A stretch of 64,000 nt of DNA, from NCBI GenBank assembly GCA_000004695.1, contig CM000150.2, positions 1,280,001 to 1,344,000 on the forward strand, in the 5' to 3' direction. The position numbers and the translations under genes were made by a program. Below are positions 4,251 through 58,114 of this stretch, piece after piece. Below the pieces are notes generated by a model. That model saw only the letters and a list, made by a program, of their open reading frames with translations. It did no database searches and was not told the origin of the DNA. Each line of letters begins with the position of its first letter. Positions within the stretch are counted from its first letter, which is position 1. This DNA comes from Dictyostelium discoideum (taxonomy: Eukaryota).

Positions 4251-5202
4251 GGACCAATCAATCTATAAAAAAAAAAAATTTTAAAAGAGAGATATTTTAA
4301 AATTAAAGTGTGCTAAAAAAAACTTTTTTTTTTTTTTTTTTTCCGCGCTGTGTGCAAAAAAAAAAAAAAAAAAAAAAATATATAAACTAATTAATTCTAA
4401 AAGGAAAACAATAAAAAGACAATTGTTATATAATTTATAATTTTAATATATATTTCTAAATTGAAAAAACAATTTTTATTTTTTATTATTAAAGTTTATT
4501 ATATTAATTTTTAATTTTTTCAATTAATTTTTAAATTGGATCGATTAGCCAAAAAATATTAATCACCATCAGTATTATCCATTATTATCTGGTACAATTG
4601 TTGGGTATTCTTGAGTTTGAATAAAATGTATTTTTTGTAACCTGATTCAATCATGTGGTGGTGGTGTGAATATAAATACTAATAATATGGTTTGTCCATA
4701 TCGATTAATGTTTGGATCGTGCAAAAATAATTGACCAAAGTCTCATTCAAATGATTTGTTAGACATTCATTTTTATAAATATTGAAACTCAAAACATTGG
4801 TTAGCTATACCTCTATTGAAAACCAATGTTTTGGCTTGTAATATTTGAAAGATTCCAAAAAACATATCTTACAAATTATTTTAATAAAACATTAGTCAAA
4901 GATTCCTTCACGATTCAAACATTAATCCAATCATGATGGTAACAATAACCATTTGAACATTCACCACATTATTACAATTTTCATATTCACAAACTCTACT
5001 TTTATATCCAATAAAAGGAACTATATTATTTATATGATGAATACATTTTTCTTTGATCTTTAATTTGGATTAATGAAAATCATCACCACCACCACCACCA
5101 ATACAAATTCCAACAATTGAAAAAATACTATATTTTGATGGCCAACCTATTTGCATTAAAAACAACTATCATTGTCATATCTATAATTATAACTACCATA
5201 TT

Positions 5203-5236
<34 letters not shown>

Positions 5237-5591
5237 GACTATGTTATTTTTATATTAATATAAATGAATTGAAAAGATTTGTTTTAGGTTAACTTTAACC
5301 AATATTTTTCAAGTTTTTTTGGTTGAATATGTATAAACTTCTTTTTCACTATTAATCTTCACCCAAAGAATTGTAGATTAAAAAATAAAATAAAATATAA
5401 AAAAAAAAAAAAAAACAAAATCCTTTTTTATATTATTATTTTTTTTTCAACCAATTAAATAATGCTTACCTTATAAAACCCAAAAGACCCAAACTAAAAA
5501 TTACATAATTTATTATTTATTATTTTATAATTAATTAATTTCTTTATTCATTTGTTTATTTATCTTTTATTAAAAATATTTTTAAAGAATG

Positions 5592-6948: not shown

Positions 6949-7863
6949 GCTGCTTATAAACAAGCTGATGGTATGAAAATAGATGATAGACGTATTGTAG
7001 TTGATATTGAAAGAGGAAGAGTTATAAAAAATTGGAAACCAAGAAAATTTGGTGGTGGTCTTGGTAATACAAGAGCAGGTGGTGTTGATGTGAATCAAAC
7101 ATTCTCTGGTCGTGAAATGTCTGAATCTAGAGAAAAAGAAAAAGAAAGAGAAAAAGAAAAAGAAAAAGAAAAAGAAAGAATGGAAAAAATGAAAAAAAGA
7201 GATGGTGGTTTATCATCAAATGGTAATAGAAGTAATGGTATTAGTAGTGGTAGTGGTGGTAGTGGTGGTGATAGAGGAGATAGAGGTGATAGAGACAGAG
7301 GAGATAGAGGTGATAGAAGTGATAGAAGTGATAGAGATAGAGAAAGAGGAAGAGGTGATAGAGATCATCGTGGTAGTGGTGGTGAAAGAGAAAGAGAAAG
7401 AGATCAAAGAGATAGGGGTGGTGATAGAGGTGGTGATAGAGGTGATAGAAGTGATAGAGGAAGAAGTGATAGAGGTGATAGAGGTGATAGAAGTGATAGA
7501 GGCAGAGATGATAGAGAAAGAGGAAGAGATGATAGAGGTGATAGAGGTAGAGATGATAGAAGAGGTGGCAGCGATAGAGATAGAGATAGAGGAAGCAGAG
7601 ATGATAGAGGTGATAGAGATGACAGAAGTGATAGAGGTAGAGATGATAGAAGAGGTGGCAGCGATAGAGATCATCGTATTGATGAAAGAAGAAGAGATCA
7701 AAGAGATTATGGATCAATTAGTGATGCACATTTTGATCATTTCCAATATCAACCACAACAACATCATCATCATCAACAAAATCATCAATCACATCATAAT
7801 CAACCACATCCAGAACGTGTAAATAGAGACTATTCAATGATTTCAAATGAAAATGGTTTTTAA
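6207..7863 (+). CDS. snrnp70: U1 small nuclear ribonucleoprotein 70 kDa (U1-70K), 3 exons: join(6207..6459,6587..6799,6950..7863)
   Basis: The N-terminus [18 protein letters not shown]...LPPYTG matches the U1-70K start MTQFLPPNLLALFAPR. The exon 1/2 junction recreates the conserved KAWDPYS (human KMWDPHND). The RRM reads [35 protein letters not shown]...[14 protein letters not shown] | [24 protein letters not shown]. The C-terminus is long and RD/RS/RE-rich and ends in a poly-H/Q tail. Donors are GTAATG and GTAAAT. Acceptors follow T/A-rich tracts. Confidence 0.85.
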
Positions 7864-8110
7864 ATTATTTAAATTAAATTAAAAAAAAAAAAAAAAAAAT
7901 TAAAAAAAAAAATTAAAAAATTAAAAATATAATAATTATTAATATTTGATAAGGTATGTGTATTTTGGGTATTTTTTTTATTTATTTCCTTTCTTTCTTT
8001 TTTTAAAATAATTCTTAAAAATATTCTTTAAAATAAAAAAATAAAAAAATAAAATAATAAAAAAAAGGTAATTATAATACCATAATAATAATTTTAGTAA
8101 GTGTATTAAC

Positions 8111-8145
<35 letters not shown>

Positions 8146-8495
8146 ATTATTGTTATTATAATTTATTATTGGTAACCTTCTTTTTTTTTTTAATTAACTC
8201 TTTCTTTAACAGACTATTTAAATCAAATCAATTCCTGTAAACTCCGAACCAAAACAAAACAAAACAAAACAAACAAAAAAAAAAACAAAAAAAAAAAAAA
8301 AGGAAATCTCTCAAAATATCAATTATATGGACTACTTGATACAATTTGTGGGGGTATCACATTTTAATGTTGTCATTTTAAAATTTAAGTAATAAAATTA
8401 ATTATTTCATTTTTTTTTTTTTTTTTTTTTTATCTTAATCATTTTTTTTCTTTTTTTAATTTTTATTTTTTTTATTATTTCAACTCCGATTTTAA

Positions 8496-20459: not shown

Positions 20460-20892
20460 TTATTATTTAATAAAGAAATCAAGATATACCCACATATTTT
20501 TATCCTTTTTTTTTTATTTATTTTTTATTTTTTTTTTAATTTTAATATTATTTTTGGAAAACTTTTTTTTTTTTTGTCAATGTTCACAAAATAAACCAAT
20601 CCATTGTATCACAATAAAATATATCTCTCTCTCTCTCTCTCTTTTGTCTTAAAATGATATGACTTTCAATTTTTTTCTTGTTGTCGACATCATACATATA
20701 ACCAATATTTTTAAATATTTAAAAAATCCAGTGAATTTTTAAATTAAAGATAAAAAAAGAAATTGAAACTTTTTTTTTTTTACAGTATAAAAATTATCCA
20801 TTGGAAATCTGCATAAATTCAAAAATTATTATTATATAAATTTAATTATATCATATCTTTTTGTTTTAAAAATATTTTACATACAAAAAAAA

Positions 20893-20970
20893 AAAAAAAC
20901 AAACACATACTCACACTCACACACACACTCACACACACACACACATACTAACACACTTTCACCCTCAAAA
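20893..20970. promoter_or_regulatory. CA-rich element (ACACTCACACACACACTCACACACACACACACATAC...) with a (TC)9 run at 20624-20643 and CATTCA/CACTCA repeats at 21160-21200, in the 2.1-kb divergent intergenic region between the LRR-EGF gene and the cyclin-like gene
   Basis: It is unusually C-containing for Dictyostelium intergenic DNA. CA/GT-rich (CAE/G-box-type) elements are established GBF-type developmental cis-elements in this genus. Confidence 0.4.
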
Positions 20971-21419
20971 ACCACTTATTTATCCATAAGATCTATGGTG
21001 GTTTTTTTTTTCTCTTTTATTTAATAATTTTTTTTTTAATTTTTCACATTTGTTCAAATTCAAAATAATTTTCAAACAAATACACGCGCACACAAGCAGT
21101 AAATATCGTTGTCAAACACTTTTTAATATGTTTACCAATTCACTCCAATAAAAATCTGTATTACACTCATTCATTCACTCATTCAACTCATCTATTTGTA
21201 TAGTATTTTTTTTTTTTTTTATTTTTAATTTTTTTAAGTATACCATTTAATTTATTTTTTTAAACTACCCACATTTATTTATTGTTATTTTTTTTTTATT
21301 TCCTTTTTTTTTTTTTTCCTTTTTTTTTTTTTTTATTTTGTATAAATAGAATTATTTAATTGGTTTTATTTTAATAATAAAAAAAATAATAAAAATAATA
21401 ATAATAATAAAAAAAAAAA

Positions 21420-21595: not shown

Positions 21596-22484
21596 ATGAA
21601 CAATTCAATGACAACTACAATTAATAAATTAAATAACTTAAATATTAATAGTTATAAAGTTATCCTAAATAATAGTAATAATAATATTAATAATAATTAT
21701 TATAATAATTATAATAATAATAATAATAATAATAATATGATACCATCTGATCAAATGAAAAAAAAGTATCCATATCTTTCACAATATTTTCCATCAACAT
21801 GTGATGCTTTGGTTAAAAAAGTGTGTAGTTGGGTAATTGATCAAAAACAAAAAAATACATGTCGAGGTGTTTCCACTCCATCTTGTAAAATCTTATCAAA
21901 TAATAATATGGAAACTGGAGTTTCTGAAATTTTAGAAACTATATTAACTTATATAGTTGATGATTTAAAAGAAAATGAATACCTTTTATTGGTATCTTTA
22001 TATTTCGCTGATAAATATGTAAATAAAGCTGGTGTAAGACAATCTCAAATTTTATGGTTAATTTTAATAAGGTAAAATATATTTAAAAATAAAATAAAAT
22101 AAAATAAAATAAAATAATATAAAATAAAATAAAATATTATATTATATTATTATTATAATTATTCAAATGACTAATTATTTTATTTTTTTTTTTTTTTTTT
22201 ATAAATAGTTGTATAGTATCTTTTAAAATGTATTCCGATTCAAATAAAATTCAAACAAAAAAGATTGAAAAAAGATTTTCAATTGACATTAAAGATAATA
22301 TAATTGGTAAAATTGAAGTTCAATTTCTTTCAAATATAGATTATAACTTGTATATTGATGAAAAAACAATAACATCATTTATTACTTGTTTATTTATTGA
22401 CTATAAAATTAATTGTCAAACAAATTTAGATTTAATTCAATCAATTTTATCCCAAATTCAAAGTGTTATTAAAACTACCGATTG

Positions 22485-22485
<1 letters not shown>
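21596..22485 (+). CDS. Cyclin-like protein (PHO80/Pcl-type cyclin fold, tentative), 2 exons: join(21596..22071,22209..22485)
   Basis: An N/Y-rich N-terminus is followed by a conserved core (...EILETILTYIVDDLKENEYLLLVSLYFADKYVNKAGVRQSQILWLILI | SCIVSFKMYSDSNKIQTKKIEKRFSIDIKDNIIGKIEVQFLSNIDYNLYIDEKTITSF...) that resembles the Pho85-cyclin N-terminal cyclin box. The GTAAAA donor at 22072 and the AG acceptor at 22207-22208 keep the frame. Confidence 0.45.
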
Positions 22486-22704: not shown

Positions 22705-22970
22705 TTAAAATGAATATTCTTTATTTGAATAAAAAGAAGGTTGAGAAGTTGATCTTGAAACAATCTTTCTTCTACCAATATTGAATTTACATTGATTATT
22801 ATTATTATTACTATTATTATTACTATTATTAATTTTTATCGAACTATTTACAATATTATTATTATAAAAACTATTACCATTACCAGTAAAGTCTTCATCA
22901 TCATATTTTTCTTCTATTATACAGCATTCATTGAAATTAACTACAAAATTAATTTCAGTTTCGGTTTTAA

Positions 22971-23067
<97 letters not shown>

Positions 23068-23853
23068 ATAATAATTATTATAAATATTATTATTATTATT
23101 GTTACAATTATTATTATTACATTGACTATTTACAGAATTAATATTATTATAATTATTATTTATATTATTATTATTATTATTATTATTAAAATTATTTTTA
23201 TATATATTAAAATAAATTGAAAGATCAGGTGAACTAATGTATCTTTCTCTTTGATTTATATATGATTCATGAAGATGTGGTTGAGAAGGTAATTCTTCTT
23301 TAATAGAAGGGAGATATGAATTATTATTATTACAATTTGTTTCAAATGTAATAAATGATTCTGGTTGATTAATTTCAATTGTTTGTTGAGCAATTTCATA
23401 AATTGGTTGTTTTGATAATTGTAATTCTTGTTCAAATTTAATTTGTTGTTGTTGTAATTCAATTTCTTGTTCTTTAATTAAATTTAAATATTGTTCAATT
23501 TTTGAATCAAGTTGTTGAAATTTACATGGTTTAAAGAGATGATCATCCATACCGGCTTCAATACATTCTTGTCTTTCAACAGTTGTTAAACCAATAATTG
23601 GTGTTTTAATTCTTAATGATTGTTGCATTTCTCTAATGATTTTAGTTGCTTCTTTACCGCCCATAATTGGCATATTGACATCCATTAAAATTATATCATA
23701 TTTATTATTTTCAACGGCATTTACAGCTTGTAATCCATTTTCTGCCAATGTAATTTTATGTCCCAATTTCTTTAAAAATTTTGATGCTATTATTCTATTT
23801 AATGGATCATCTTCAACTACTAATATATTTGCACATTTATTAATTGTATTCAT
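22705..23853 (-). CDS. Stand-alone two-component response regulator: N-terminal receiver (REC) domain followed by a Q/N-rich low-complexity C-terminal region. Single exon, 382 aa.
   Basis: The REC domain keeps every catalytic position. The acidic pocket is ILVVEDDPLNR, the phospho-acceptor Asp is in IILMDVNMPIMGG, Thr is in IGLTT, and Lys is in HLFKP. The C-terminal half is poly-N/Q with scattered Cys and no output domain I can recognise. Confidence 0.8.
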
Positions 23854-24175
23854 TTTATTATTATTTTATTTTTTGAAAAAAAAAAAAAAAAATATTTTAT
23901 TTATTATTTTTTTTTTTTTTTATTATTTTTTTTTTTTTTTTTATTATTTTTATTATTATTTGTATAAATAAATAAATTTATTATTGGGGAAAAAAATTAA
24001 ATAATTAAATAAATAAATAATTTTTTTTTTTTTTTTTTATATTGGGTTATTTTTTTTTTTTTTTTTTTTTTTTTTGTGAATGTAATTATTTTTATTATTA
24101 TTATTATTATTATTTTTATTATTTTTATTATTTTTATTTTTTATTTTTTTTATTTTTATTAATAAAATTAAATGA

Positions 24176-24290
24176 TTGAGTGCGTGTGTGATGTGTATAT
24201 GTGATATTTGGAAAAAATAGTGTGAAAAAAATGGGATTGTGTGTTATTTTTATTTATTTGGGTGTTGATGTTATGCGTGGGGTTTATTTT
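24176..24290. promoter_or_regulatory. Cluster of G-box/GT-rich motifs (GTGCGTGTGTGATGTGT, GGGATTGTGTGTT, TGGGTGTTG, GCGTGGGG) 320-440 bp upstream of the REC-domain gene start
   Basis: TGTGTG/GGGTG-type G-boxes resemble GBF-binding sites of post-aggregative Dictyostelium promoters. Their position relative to ATG 23853 fits a promoter. Confidence 0.35.
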
Positions 24291-26694
24291 TTTTATTTTT
24301 TTTTTATTTTTATTTATTTTTTATTATTATTTTTTTTTTTTTGATTTTATTATAAATTGGTGGTTGTACAATAATTTATTGGAAGTGATTGACGATGATG
24401 AAGATGATGATGTGATGTATGTTTTGTTTTTTATTATAATGCTATAAATAAAAAAAGGAATATTTTACTTTTTAAGAAATTTAAAAAATAATAAAATAAA
24501 ATAAAATAAAATAAAATAAAATAAAAATATTTTAATTAATTAATTTTTTAAATAAAAAAAATAATTAATTATTATAATAGTTATTTTTAGTGAGAGTGAG
24601 TGAGAGTAGAGGAGAGTAAATGATGATTATTAAAAAAAGTTTTCAAATTTGTCTTTTTTTTTTATTTGTTATTTTTATTATTTATTAAAATGAATTATTA
24701 ATTTCTAAATTTAAAAAAAAAAAAAAAAAAATTATTAAATAGTTAGTTTTTAATTTTTTTTATTTTATTTTATTTTTTTTTTTTTTTTTAAAAAAAAAAA
24801 AATGATGAAGAGAGAATTTTTTGGATTTGGTTTTTTGAATTAATTAACAAAAAAAAAAAAAAAAAAAAGAGATTAAATTATTTGATTTATAAACAAAACA
24901 AACACTCGATGTTAACATAAAAACAAAAATAAAAAATTAGAATGATCATTAATTTTAATTCCAAAAATTATTTTGAAAAAAAAAAAAAAAAAGGAAGGTG
25001 ATGATATTGAAAATGCTCGGTAGTGCCCCTAAAAAACTTGGAATTATTTAAATATCTAAAAAATGAGACACAAAAATAATTAGATTCTCTTTTTAGAGAA
25101 TCGTGTGTGTTGATTTTTACTAATAATGTGAATATAATTTCTTTTTTTTTTTTTTTATTATTATAAATCAATGGATTTTATTGGGTGTGTGGGTTATTTT
25201 TTTTTTTTTTTTTTTTTTTATTATTTTTTTCATGGAATTGAGATATTATTATAATTATTATTTTTTTTTTTTTTTTTTTTTAAAAGTTACTTCAAGTTTG
25301 AATAAGTAAATGAAAAAATATAAATTAAGGTGGTAATTGTGTGAGAGGTAGAGTATGATTTTGATTTAAAATAAAAAAATGATTTTATCATAATAAAAAA
25401 AAAATAATAATAAAGAAAAAAAAAAATCTAAAATGAATTGGATTTTGTGTGTGTTTTGATGTTAAAAAAAAAAAAAAAAAAAAATATTTTTCGTTGTATT
25501 TTTAAATCCTAAAAAAAATTTCTTTAAAAATAGGAAATATAAATCTCTTTTTATGGCTACAGTGATGTTGTTATTGAATTTACTTTTTTTTTTTTTTTTT
25601 TGATTTTAATTTTTTCTATTTTTTTTTTTTTTTTTTTTGTTTTCTTCAAAATTGGATCATTTATTTTTATATCGACATTAATGATCAACCCCTTTATGCT
25701 AAAAACTATATAGTTTTTGATAAAAAAGAAAAAAAAAAAAAAAAAAATTTAAAAATAAAAAAAAAAAAGATTTTTTTGATTTAAAAATAATTATTAAATA
25801 ATAAACGTTTAAAAAAAAAAAAAAAAAAAAAACAATTGTATAATTTAAATTTTTTTTTTTTTTTTTTAATGTTTTGTTTAAACCATTATTTTATTTTTTT
25901 TATTTAAAATTTATTTTTTCTATTTTTTTTTTTTAAACTACCCAAACATCTAAGACAGTGTGAGGTTTAAGATGTGGTGAAAAAGAGAGAGGGTTATACT
26001 AGTTTTTTACCACAATAAAACATGATTTTTTGTTTCATTTTCAAAAAACTCTTTAAATTTTAAAAGTTGAAATTGATTGAGATTAAAGTTTGTGATAATA
26101 AAAAAAAAAAAAATAAAAAAAATTAAAAAATCAAAACACTAAATCAAAAAAAAAAAAAATAAAAACACACACTACATCAAAAAAAAAAAAAAAAAAAAAA
26201 AAGATTTTTGTGTTGGCAACATTAACTAAAAACAATAAAAAAAAAAAACATGATTTTGATTTTTATAGTGCAAAAATTTATTTAATAAGACAGATATTGT
26301 CAATATCTATAAAAAGAACCGCCTAATTCATTTCATGTCACTATTTCTTAATATAGATATAAATAATTTTTTGAGGGAATTCAAAAAAAAATAAAAAAAC
26401 CATCAAAAAATAAAAATTTAACATTTTATTTTTTTTTTTATTTTTTTATTTTTTTTTTTTATTTTTTTTATTTTTTATTTTTTTTTTTTAATTTAATAGA
26501 TCATTCAAAGTTAATGTTTCAGTTTTATTTTAAATTTTTAAATATCTAATATTCAGTTTGGAGTGTTAAATATAATCTATAATTTTTATAATGGTTTATT
26601 TTATGCGACCCTTCTATTATTTCGTTTTTAAAAAATAGCTTTTTTTTTTTTTTTTATTATCACAAATACATATTTTAATACCCATATTATTTTA

Positions 26695-26732
<38 letters not shown>

Positions 26733-26793
26733 CTATTAAAAATAAGTTATATAAAACTTTATAAATGGTGCACGGCAAAACAATTCTGATTAT

Positions 26794-26824
<31 letters not shown>

Positions 26825-27842
26825 GGAACTATTAAAATAAATTATTATTATTTTTTTTTTTTTTTTTTTTTTATTTTTATTTTTAAAAAAAAATTGAACT
26901 TTTGGTAATGGAATTTAAAATTTGAGTTCTTTTAAATTTCAAAAAAAAACCTTCTGATACTATTGGAATTACTTTTTAATAAATTGAAAACTTTTATAAT
27001 ATTTCTTCAAAAACTGAAATTGTTTTCTCTTTTATTCCGAAATTTGAAATCAATAACAATAAATTTATTTTTTGATAATTTTTATTATAAATGACAATTT
27101 AATTTTAATTTTAATTTTATTTTTTTTTATTTTTTTTTTTTGGAAAATTAATCTTTTTATCAAAATTCGTATACTTGTGTGACACTTGATTTTCTATTCA
27201 TGGTGATGAAAAAAAAAAAAATAAAAAAATAAAAAAAATAATAATATAATATATTAAAAAAAAATATAAAAAAAATTATTAAAAGGAGATTGATAATTTT
27301 AATTTTAATTTAATTTTTTATTTTATTTTTTTTTTTTTTTTTTTTTAATAATAAAATGGAAAAAAAAAAAATAATTGATATGATTATAAAATAATTTTAA
27401 TTTTTTTTTTTTTTTAACCAATTAAATAATTTATTAAAATATTTTAGTAGTTTGAAAAAAGTCCAATGATATTTTTCAATTAAAATCATTCAAAGAATTA
27501 TAGGAACAACAATTAAAATATATTTTTTATTTTTATATTTTTATATTTTTAAAATGGGGTGTTTGATATGTTTAATATATGAAATTTTTAAAAAAAAAAA
27601 AAATTAATATATATGAAACTTCACAAAATTTGCTGGTTTTTTTTTTGATTTTAAATAATATTGTTTTTGAATTTTTTTGATTTTTTTGATTTAATTTTTT
27701 TTTTTCTGGAAATCAAAAAAAAAAATTTTTGGTGATCAGGAGTGTGAGATTTATAAATTAATTTTGTAAAATAACTAGTTTAATCAAATTTAATATTTTG
27801 ATCTATATTAAACTACAAAATTGGAAATGAAATTGATTGACG

Positions 27843-27895
<53 letters not shown>

Positions 27896-28295
27896 AATAA
27901 CAATTATGTTTAATTAAAATTATTTAATTTAAAGTTTAATTAAGATAAAATCGAATTTTAAAAATTATTCTTTATAAAAAAAAAAAAAATTATTTAATAA
28001 ATAAATAAATAATTAAAAATATATTAATATAACTTTTTTTTTTTTTTTTTTTACCAAAAAAAGTTATAATTTTTTTTTTTTTTTTTTTTTATTTAATTAT
28101 TATTTCTAAAATTTCTTTAAGTTTTTTTCCTAAAATGTAAATTCTTTTTTTTTTTTTTTTTTATATTTTTATTTTCTTTTTTTTTTGAATTAATTAAAAA
28201 TTTATTTTTTTTTATTTTTTTTTATTTTTACACAAATTTTTTTTTTTTTTTTTTATTTTTTTTAATTTTTAATTTTTTTTGAATTAATTTTAATA

Positions 28296-30389
28296 ATGAA
28301 TAAATTTAGTAGAGAAGCTGGAGAAGTTGTATTATTAAGAGCAATTACAAAATATTCATCACAACAAGGTACATTATTTTTTACAAGTTTAAGATTAGTA
28401 TGGGTACAAAGTGGATATAGTGAACCAAGTTTACATTTACATATTTCAGAGATTAAAAATCAATTCATTAGTACACCAAAGAGTGCTAAAGCGTTATTAC
28501 GTTTATCAGTACGTGATAGTATAAAGAATGCACTTCAAGAGTTTGTATTTGAATTTACACATCCAACCAATGCAAGATCAGATCTCAATAGTTTTAGAGA
28601 TAAAATAGCGGCAACTGCAAATTTAACAGCACCAACTCTACCAGTGTCAGCCTCCAATGGATCAAATACAACCTCACCAACAAATGGTACATCACCAATA
28701 AATGGTACATCACCAACTATGACTGGTTTAAAAGTGAATCCTGACGGTACAATTACCAATGACCCATTATCATCACAACCAGCACAAGTCGAAGAAAAAG
28801 CGGAAACTAAATATTTATCAAAATTAAAACAACCATCATTATCAGAACAACAAATTAAACAACGTGTTATACTATTACAATCTAATAAAGAGTTGAGAGA
28901 GCTCTATGAACAAATGGTAAATAAAGATAGAGTTATCAGTGAATCTGATTTTTGGGAATCACGTAAATCAATGTTAAAAAATGACTCTACAAGATCAGAG
29001 AAACAACATACTGGTATGCCAAGTAATCTATTAGCAGATGTCAGACCATCCTCTGAAACACCAAATGCAGTACACTATAGATTCACTCCAACTGTAATTC
29101 ATCAAATTTTCATTCAACATCCATCAGTTGAAAAAGCATACAAAGCAAATGTACCCTTAAAAATATCAGAACAAAACTTTTGGAAGAAATATGTTCAATC
29201 AAAATACTTCTATCGTGATCGTTCATCTGCAAATGCACCACCAGTTGATGATGATCTATTTTCAAAGTATGAAACTGATGAACAAAATAAAATTAGAATT
29301 TTAAAAAGAAAACTTATAGATATCAATCCATTGGTTGATTTATCTTCAACTGATGGTTTTGATACTGATGTTCATAGTGGCTATGGTGTATTATTAGATC
29401 AATCTCAAGATCCAAATAAATTAGAAAAAGCATTACCATTATTACGTAAATTTAATAGACATTCTGCTTTAGTTTTAGGTTCAAAAGATTTATTAACAAA
29501 TAATTCAATTAATATTGAAAAAGATCAAAAAAATTTAAAAAAAACTAAAAAAGATGAAAATTCAACATCAACACCAACAACAACAACAACAACAACAAAT
29601 ACTACTAATACTACCAATACTACTACTACTACTACTACAAATAATACTACAATAAAAGATCCAAATTTATATAATGGAGATGATGAAGAAAATATAAGTG
29701 TTGAACAAATGGAAAAAATTTTAGAAAATCATAAAAAATTAGTAAATCAACATATTATAATTGATGATTTACAAGAAGAGAATTCTCAAACTTTAACACT
29801 TTTAAAAATTTCAGATCAAAAACGTTATTTTGAAGGTCATTCAACAAATAATATTCTAAGTGATAAAGAGAAATCACAATTAATTGATATACTTGATTTT
29901 GATTATAAAAATTGGCAACCAAATTTACCTCAAGTATTTTATCAAACTCATTCATCATCATCAATATTACAAGAACCAAATATATCAGTTCATTCAGAAA
30001 TATTTGAACCATATAATAAAGCAGCTATAAATTCAAAAGAAGAATATAATTTACCAGAATCCTCATTTAAGAGAGATTTATTTCAATCATTTCATCATTG
30101 TAATGAATTATTAAGACATTTTTGGGCAACAACTTTTACTTTAGGTAGAGGTGCTCCACCAACTTCACAACAAATCGATAAAAATAATAAAATATCCTCT
30201 GCAATAGCTTTACAATATGATAAAATTGAAGAAAAAAAGAAAATGTTAATTAGTCAAAATAAAGTTAACCAATCTTCATTATTCACTCCAATTTTAGAAT
30301 CACTTCATAAAGCAATTGAAAAGAAAGAATCTCAAACTAATCAATATACTTTTAAAAATAATAATAATAATTTTCATACAATTTCTTAA
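28296..30389 (+). CDS. gtf2h1: General transcription factor IIH subunit 1 (TFIIH p62 / Tfb1), single exon, 697 aa
   Basis: The N-terminal PH-like domain reads GEVVLLRAITKYSSQQGTLFFTSLRLVW. Two BSD-domain signatures follow (…FIQHPSVEKAYKANVP..., ...SEQNFWKKYVQSKYFYRDR...). The order PH then BSD1/BSD2 then C-terminal helical region matches p62/Tfb1. Confidence 0.75.
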   Translation: MNKFSREAGEVVLLRAITKYSSQQGTLFFTSLRLVWVQSGYSEPSLHLHISEIKNQFISTPKSAKALLRLSVRDSIKNALQEFVFEFTHPTNARSDLNSFRDKIAATANLTAPTLPVSASNGSNTTSPTNGTSPINGTSPTMTGLKVNPDGTITNDPLSSQPAQVEEKAETKYLSKLKQPSLSEQQIKQRVILLQSNKELRELYEQMVNKDRVISESDFWESRKSMLKNDSTRSEKQHTGMPSNLLADVRPSSETPNAVHYRFTPTVIHQIFIQHPSVEKAYKANVPLKISEQNFWKKYVQSKYFYRDRSSANAPPVDDDLFSKYETDEQNKIRILKRKLIDINPLVDLSSTDGFDTDVHSGYGVLLDQSQDPNKLEKALPLLRKFNRHSALVLGSKDLLTNNSINIEKDQKNLKKTKKDENSTSTPTTTTTTTNTTNTTNTTTTTTTNNTTIKDPNLYNGDDEENISVEQMEKILENHKKLVNQHIIIDDLQEENSQTLTLLKISDQKRYFEGHSTNNILSDKEKSQLIDILDFDYKNWQPNLPQVFYQTHSSSSILQEPNISVHSEIFEPYNKAAINSKEEYNLPESSFKRDLFQSFHHCNELLRHFWATTFTLGRGAPPTSQQIDKNNKISSAIALQYDKIEEKKKMLISQNKVNQSSLFTPILESLHKAIEKKESQTNQYTFKNNNNNFHTIS

Positions 30390-48416: not shown

Positions 48417-48718
48417 AATTTTACCACACCGTATGAATTTTTTTTTTTTTACACCATATTAAATAAATTAAAAAATAATAAAAAAATAATAAAAAAAATT
48501 AAACCCAATGGTGTGTGTTTTCTTTTAATTATTTATATTTTTATTTTATTTTTTTTTTTTTTTTTTTTTTTATTTATTATTAATTTTATTTATTATTAAT
48601 TTTATTTATTTTTATTTATTTTTTTATTTAGTTATTTTTTATATTTATATAAATTGTTTTTATTTATTTTATTTTTCCAACACAGGAAATAATTTTTCGT
48701 ATAAAAAAAAATAATAGA

Positions 48719-48749
<31 letters not shown>

Positions 48750-49297
48750 AATAATAAAAAAAAAAAAATAAAAAGGAATTAAGTTATTTACAAGCCAATT
48801 TTATTTTGTTTTTTTTTTTTTTGTTTTGTTTTGCTTTGTTTTTTTTTTTTTTTTTTTTTTTGATCTTCTAGATTATTATAATAAAAATGTTGGAGAACTT
48901 GTAATTCATCACTTTATTTTTAATTTTTTCATTTTTTCATTTTTTAATATTAATTTCGAGAATAAAGTAAGCGGTGACTGTTTATTTTTAAAAAAAAAAA
49001 AAAAATGAATATTCATTTTATATAAAACGAGATATATTTATTTATTTTTTTTTTTATTTTTTTTTTTTTCGACCTGTTTATTTTTTAAATTTTATTCAAA
49101 ATTGAGATATTTTTCTTCTTTTTTTTTTTAATAAAAAAAAAATAATTAAAAATAAAAAAAAAAAAATAAAAAATTATTTTTAATTTTCGTTTCAAATTTA
49201 AAAAAAAAAAAAAAAATTTGGATAAAAAAAAAGTTAAAAAAATAATTTCATTTTTTTTTTTTTTTAAACCTCTCTAAAACAAACAAATAATCTAAAA

Positions 49298-54448: not shown

Positions 54449-58114
<3,666 letters not shown>

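Follow-up and report, generated by a model that had tools for sequence, protein, structure and literature searches.

A stand-alone receiver-domain gene of Dictyostelium discoideum with conserved tail motifs: a candidate further target of RdeA

RegA is usually seen as the single regulator acting below about 15 histidine kinases in Dictyostelium, and was described by Singleton and Xiong 2013 as the single (functional) response regulator (PMC3783435). It is the only characterised target of RdeA, and reviews suspect that there are more (PMC11988041). A gene encoding a receiver domain followed by an Asn-rich tail, located in the 64,000-nucleotide stretch of D. discoideum DNA analysed here (the window), raises the question of whether the phosphorelay has a further end point, and of what such a protein would do with the phosphoryl group.

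Proteins of this kind have been counted before. Five extra receiver proteins, likely histidine-kinase targets, were noted in the kinome paper of Goldberg et al. 2006, and the number of response regulators in D. discoideum was given as 5 by Schaap et al. 2015 (PMC4758236). Because of these counts, and because the gene itself is publicly annotated, what we present is a sharper hypothesis and not a discovery; the "orphan" and "rare" status accorded to the gene in the original prediction has to be given up in that sense. Literature searches found no publications on this particular receiver gene, which is annotated but uncharacterised and of an ordinary, known kind. The tail motifs and a conserved promoter module are the additions made here.

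Gene structure, orthologues and neighbours

The receiver gene lies on the minus strand at 22705..23853, exactly where the original prediction had placed it, and is complete in a single exon, with an ATG start and 382 codons plus a stop in the list of open reading frames (ORFs). A missing AX4 model for the 382-aa product was considered and rejected, since an identical gene is called in another D. discoideum assembly (GCA_054883475.1), where a 382-aa gene at the syntenic position has a product 100% identical to the receiver protein. The identical gene (locus L004, 19381-20529) has no Pfam match on record. Exact look-ups that miss the 382-aa product reflect a property of the tables, because gtf2h1 is equally inconsistent there; the latter gene (28296-30389) is present in the cluster table and absent from the contig index. 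Six other proteins encoded in the extremely AT-rich window (DDB_G0268008, DDB_G0268558, gtf2h1, DDB_G0268028, plbG and the enolase-phosphatase) correspond residue-for-residue to AX4 chromosome 1 entries.

Orthologues with a single receiver are present in D. citrinum (381 aa), D. purpureum (325 aa) and Tieghemostelium lacteum (278 aa), and an N-terminally truncated one of 247 aa in Synstelium polycarpum. The D. purpureum and T. lacteum proteins carry public names as response-regulatory or receiver-domain proteins. In four species the ORF is intact, with an ATG and a short leader immediately ahead of strand beta1, and independent annotations give a gene of 278-382 aa. The D. purpureum model (L002, 8001-9038) takes 1038 nt to encode 325 aa, implying an intron of about 60 nt that is absent from D. 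discoideum, D. citrinum and T. lacteum and may be an annotation artefact. A profile search with four orthologues was dominated by bacterial receivers and missed P0001 and P0002; it did recover the S. polycarpum orthologue. A search of 1.84 billion representatives returned, after the orthologues, multi-receiver hybrid kinases only, and is uninformative about paralogues within Dictyostelium. The best matches outside the Dictyostelia (P0003, P0213 and relatives) are metagenomic proteins of about 310 aa with tandem receivers (PF23198 and PF00072), at 43-46% identity.

The order EMP70, TFIIH-p62, a spacer of 4.0-4.5 kb, receiver gene and small convergent gene is kept in D. citrinum and D. purpureum, so that the neighbours are conserved within group 4; the T. 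lacteum gene has different neighbours. Upstream, the next gene is gtf2h1, which is divergently transcribed. On the 3′ side, a convergent two-exon gene (21596-22485, plus strand) ends 220 bp from the receiver gene; it has no Pfam match, and its counterparts in D. citrinum (298 aa) and D. purpureum (224 aa) likewise adjoin the receiver gene.

This arrangement bears on whether the ORF is an independent gene at all, or instead supplies the receiver exon to a longer hybrid histidine kinase, or is what remains of one in decay. The closest relatives in both sequence and structure are indeed hybrid-kinase receivers (see below). However, no credible ORF that could supply kinase exons was found in the 4.4 kb (23854-28295, 12-17% G+C) separating the gene from gtf2h1, and no HisKA or HATPase_c domain accompanies PF00072 in the same gene, the orthologues being equally short. 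The intact ORFs, their independent annotation as genes of modest length and the strong purifying selection described below also argue against a fragment. We reject the hybrid-kinase reading because of the empty upstream region, the convergent neighbour, the short single-receiver orthologues and the kept gene order, and consider it extremely improbable. The original prediction of a stand-alone protein thus holds, and holds in five dictyostelids.

The receiver domain and its tail

The Pfam profile PF00072 (Response_reg) matches aa 10-119 (23497..23826, minus strand) with E=4.7e-24 and 85.1 bits, for a curated cut-off of 30.2 bits, and over positions 1-110 of the 111 in the profile, a full-length match that bears out the proposed receiver identity. 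The AlphaFold2 (AF2) model has pLDDT>95 over aa 9-125, with the five strands and five helices of a (beta-alpha)5 fold. Foldseek comparison of this model with the PDB returned receivers only (TM 0.8-0.93), with hybrid-kinase receivers at TM 0.8-0.9 and rmsd 1.3-2 Å, the top match being 8phn, HK3 of C. thermophilum (TM 0.90, rmsd 1.3 Å, 44% identity), followed by GacS D1, AHK5 and Sln1. A sequence search of the PDB likewise gave hybrid histidine kinase receivers as its best matches: 8phn (3.5e-24), PA1611, AHK5, GacS and RcsC.

The catalytic residues could be aligned to their counterparts in solved receivers. The acidic pair is E14/D15, followed by D16; the predicted phospho-acceptor, D58 in ILMDVNMP (codon at 23680..23682, minus strand), aligns with the acceptor Asp of hybrid-kinase receivers; T90 lies in GLTT and K108 in FKP (K108-P109). 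In an alignment of 39 sequences (the query and 38 homologues), D15 never varies and E14, D58 and K108 each reach at least 90% conservation, while the acidic pair, D58, T90 and K108 are kept in every orthologue. Since Pfam, the alignment of catalytic residues, AF2 and Foldseek agree, the receiver is real and, from its sequence and model, looks catalytically competent.

The domain has some peculiarities of its own. Compared to other receivers, the beta4-alpha4 loop carries a 4-residue deletion after the conserved Thr (LTT----VERQEC) that is common to all five orthologues, and helix alpha4 is short in consequence, as seen in the orthologue alignment and in the AF2 models of D. discoideum and T. 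lacteum. The coupling of switching to phosphorylation could be altered by this shortening. In group 4, His occupies the aromatic switch position (K-3), and the residue two positions after the acceptor Asp (D+2) is Asn (MDVNMP) in three group-4 species, His in T. lacteum and Gln in S. polycarpum. Helix alpha5 is prolonged in the model as a Q/E-rich helix (aa 112-147, 23413..23520, minus strand; pLDDT>90). A conserved coiled coil was considered for this helix and rejected: past about aa 127, the extension is confined to the lineage of D. discoideum and D. citrinum, is missing or could not be aligned in D. purpureum, T. lacteum and S. polycarpum, and falls in a linker with a dN/dS of 0.73.

The rest of the protein had been described in the original prediction as lacking an output domain and consisting only of poly-N/Q. 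The first part of this description stands. PF00072 is the sole Pfam family matching the 382-aa protein at E<=1, no second family is found in three orthologues either, and the tail, 35% Asn in composition, is disordered in AF2 (pLDDT<50), with no confident structure or docking. There is thus no recognisable output domain; nor is the protein essentially a receiver alone, given a tail of 130-260 aa with motifs and a constrained block. It is the second part, "only poly-N/Q", that fails, as two short motifs are kept in 5/5 orthologues and much of the tail is under selection.

To define the constraint along the protein, codons were compared with those of D. citrinum, at a dS of about 0.24. The receiver (aa 1-128) has a dN/dS of 0.08, the linker (aa 129-150) 0.73 and aa 151-222 0.20. 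This is followed by an Asn-rich low-complexity stretch (aa 223-290, 22984..23187, minus strand; pLDDT<50) with a dN/dS of 0.87 and large indels, which is evolving neutrally in both length and sequence. The C-terminal block (aa 291-382, 22708..22983, minus strand) has a dN/dS of 0.095 (dS 0.23), with 86/89 aligned residues identical, so that the last 92 residues are constrained to the same degree as the receiver. By the same measure, purifying selection acts on both aa 151-222 and aa 291-382, whose sequence is ordinary. Among the other repeat-rich ORFs of the window, one of 1221 aa (54449-58114, minus strand) is made up for the most part of N/S dipeptide repeats, poly-N and poly-Q and has a short C-terminal region of ordinary sequence; its exact product was not found in the protein collection. 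Another (6973-7863, plus strand) has long Arg-Asp/Arg-Glu/Gly repeats, a G+C content of 33% and a GC skew of +0.61, and resembles the C-terminal part of a U1-70K-type RNA-binding protein.

Two short motifs, both defined post hoc, stand out in the tail. Motif 1, S-S-P-D-L (aa 207-211, 23221..23235, minus strand), lies within RERYISSPDLSIYF; each orthologue (5/5) has a single match to its pattern, S[SA]P[DN]L, with the order along the protein kept. Motif 2, R-S-T-S-Q-P-S-F-Y (aa 367-375, 22729..22755, minus strand), ends 7 residues from the C-terminus, and its pattern, R[ST]xSxP[SC]F[YF], is found 5-8 residues from the C-terminus in 5/5 orthologues. The core of motif 2 reads RSTSQP in D. discoideum, D. 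citrinum and D. purpureum and RSKSEP in T. lacteum; in S. polycarpum it is RTHSDP, with T replacing S at -2, which departs from a strict R-S-x-S-x-P. As a pattern match only, motif 2 conforms to the 14-3-3 mode-1 pattern R-S-x-pS-x-P, and it also fits a basophilic-kinase consensus of hydrophobic (-5), Arg (-3) and hydrophobic (+4). These matches suggest that motif 2 is likely a site of Ser phosphorylation and 14-3-3-type docking. Docking of motif 2 on the receiver itself was considered and set aside: AF2 places a weak beta-bridge between residues 373/374 and 110/111 (S373-F374/C110-K111) at a pLDDT of about 50, and it is not reproduced in T. lacteum.

The upstream region

The spacer between the receiver gene and gtf2h1 (23854-28295) is, at 4.4 kb, unusually long for Dictyostelium, with counterparts of 4.05 kb in D. 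citrinum (L001, 5951-10000) and 4.5 kb in D. purpureum (L002, 3526-8000). It contains no ORF of 70 aa or more, and scans of the window for tRNAs and Rfam families were empty. The spacer could be a complex regulatory region or hold an unannotated non-coding transcript. An oligo(dT) run on the sense strand, 23-39 nt 5′ of the ATG (23876..23892, minus strand), is likely the core-promoter or transcription-start region, such runs near the ATG being the usual look of Dictyostelium core promoters.

The original prediction had drawn attention to a G-box-rich promoter 300-450 bp upstream and had taken it as developmental in type. The response element of GBF is (T/G)G(T/G)G(T/G)G(T/G), which as a rule occurs in close pairs (PMC2257962). 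A proximal CA-rich module, with the G-box on the opposite strand, is present at about -315 to -437 (24167..24290, minus strand). It holds two strict heptamers, at 24238-24244 and 24259-24265 (about -390/-410), 21 bp apart, and comprises the blocks CCCCACGCA..ACATCAAC and CACACACGCACTCAATCATT. These are the only strict heptamers in the -300 to -450 stretch; the best heptamer cluster of the spacer lies further upstream, at about -1250 to -1600 (25103..25458, minus strand), with 7/54 of the KGKGKGK matches of the window, and includes TTGGGTGTGTGGGTT at 25181-25195. CA-rich runs are found at distances like those of this distal cluster in D. citrinum and D. purpureum; the cluster may just as well belong to gtf2h1 as to the receiver gene.

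It should be noted that GBF heptamers are enriched across the whole window, with 54 observed for 20.2 +/- 4.5 expected (a 2.7-fold excess). Eleven of them fall in the spacer, the G-rich strand being opposite the receiver sense strand in 10/11. Runs of G and T only, scored in 200-bp windows, are about 2.4 SD over the noncoding mean at 24100-24400, but score higher in other spacers of the window (4500-5250, 8100-8450, 20750-21100 and 48650-49000). The third of these, upstream of the small gene at 21596, is the strongest CA-rich stretch of the window and contains a (CA)n microsatellite at 20918-20945. As the heptamers are enriched throughout, their presence alone is weak evidence for GBF-dependent post-aggregative induction and no proof of it, and the developmental label cannot be upheld on this basis.

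Conservation gives a better argument for the module. The CA-rich blocks between -300 and -560 form near-identical, indel-free islands in the comparison with D. citrinum, against about 75% identity and many indels in the rest of the spacer. D. purpureum, although far more distant, shares CCCCACGCA..ACATCAAC and CACACAC(G/C)CACTCAATCATT at a similar distance from the gene. This comparison was made by G+C-containing k-mers, lax blastn having given AT-rich noise only, and 14 G+C-containing 8-mers were common to D. discoideum and D. purpureum for 1.5 +/- 1.7 expected. CA-rich runs at -300 to -520 occur in 4/4 species examined. Because it is conserved as far as D. purpureum, which outweighs the heptamer count, the module is probably a genuine cis-element of the G-box/CAE type. 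The predicted promoter thus survives as a conserved CA-rich/G-box module, if not as an exceptional concentration of heptamers.

Possible roles in the phosphorelay

How might a receiver with no recognisable output domain act? The protein is best explained as the D. discoideum representative of a family of small response regulators found across the Dictyostelia, in which a single receiver of the hybrid-kinase/HPt-partner type precedes an intrinsically disordered tail. The reading that we favour, with about an even chance of being right in our estimation, is that of a phosphorylatable single-receiver protein fed by a histidine phosphotransfer (HPt) protein, whose output would be protein binding through motifs in its disordered tail. 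D58 would take the phosphoryl group from RdeA, the donor that also feeds RegA, and the protein receiving it would have no enzymatic or DNA-binding output. Phosphorylation would instead change its binding partners, with S-S-P-D-L and the C-terminal R-S-x-S-x-P-S-F-Y serving as output or regulatory handles, and the phosphate drawn from RdeA would, as a side effect, damp activation of RegA. In this scheme we infer the phosphotransfer from RdeA, the phospho-dependent binding of partners and the reading of the C-terminal motif by a kinase and 14-3-3. The nearest solved relatives of the receiver do exchange phosphate with HPt proteins (C. thermophilum HK3 and HK6-HPt, Sln1-Ypd1, AHK5 and GacS D1). 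AcrA is reportedly fed independently of RdeA, so the donor of the receiver protein need not be RdeA.

Comparison with known systems helps to place the protein. It has the same catalytic residues as the hybrid-kinase receivers that feed HPt proteins (HK3 8phn, Sln1-R1, AHK5 4euk, GacS D1 and PA1611; E-values of 1e-24 to 1e-18, at most 44% identity), but it lacks a kinase core, four residues are missing from its beta4-alpha4 loop and it has a 260-aa disordered tail of its own, with motifs. Like RegA, it is a non-kinase receiver protein of D. discoideum, presumably with the same phosphodonor; unlike RegA, it has no phosphodiesterase or other catalytic domain (Pfam, E<=1). CheY, Spo0F, DivK and the "featureless" receiver proteins of Physarum polycephalum share with it a receiver as the sole recognisable domain, but are tailless and about 120 aa long, whereas the Dictyostelia family has a long tail with linear motifs. 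Functional parallels may be found in plants and yeasts. Type-A response regulators of plants (ARR3-9 and 15-17) are HPt-fed and act, as modulators or in negative feedback, through phospho-dependent interactions. They likewise combine a receiver with a short, non-catalytic C-terminal extension, although their tail motifs are unrelated and no orthology is shown. Ssk1 of yeast and Mcs4 of S. pombe join a Ypd1-fed receiver to a region without enzymatic activity through which a downstream kinase is bound, and the Ssk1 receiver (5kbx) is among the matches. Ssk1, however, has its receiver at the C-terminus and binds its partner through an N-terminal region, and there is no sequence similarity outside the receiver. 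The protein thus resembles plant type-A regulators or yeast Ssk1 in its presumed function, by analogy, and is unrelated to them outside the receiver.

Two other accounts of an intact receiver on a disordered tail have to be weighed. The protein could be a pure phosphate sink, an option already raised in the original prediction, competing with RegA for RdeA~P or draining RdeA~P by fast autodephosphorylation, with a tail that matters for stability only. An intact receiver with no detectable output domain is what such a sink would look like, and Asn at D+2, present in the three group-4 species as in CheY, goes with fast dephosphorylation in the latter. However, the D+2 residue is not fixed (H in T. 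lacteum, Q in S. polycarpum), and a tail needed for stability only would not be expected to have 92 C-terminal residues constrained like the receiver and two motifs kept in five species. Selection on the tail lowers the likelihood of a pure sink, which we regard as possible but rather unlikely.

In the other account, the receiver would be atypical and independent of phosphorylation, its fold serving as a binding scaffold under the control of Ser/Thr phosphorylation of the tail. The conserved Ser-rich tail motifs and the shortened beta4-alpha4 loop and alpha4 of all orthologues are compatible with this. Atypical receivers are usually missing some of the catalytic residues, though, and here the acidic pair, D58, T90 and K108 persist in every orthologue of a receiver whose dN/dS is 0.08. 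With none of the catalytic residues lost, this account is less likely than the one we favour; we consider it improbable, more so than the sink.

A bolder version of the HPt-fed adaptor that we favour can also be formulated, and is best taken as a speculation with a small chance of being correct. The protein would be a second RdeA target and a cAMP-independent output of the histidine kinases; Asp-phosphorylation of the receiver would control the exposure of motif 2, which would be phosphorylated by a basophilic kinase of the AMPK/CaMK type and bound by the single 14-3-3 protein. The receiver gene is a concrete and easily knocked-out candidate for a further RdeA target, and D58 and the tail motifs provide defined sites for mutation (D58N, S370A and a C-terminal deletion). 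If the bolder version is true, a single small adaptor, conserved throughout the Dictyostelia, would bring together the His-Asp relay and Ser/Thr signalling.
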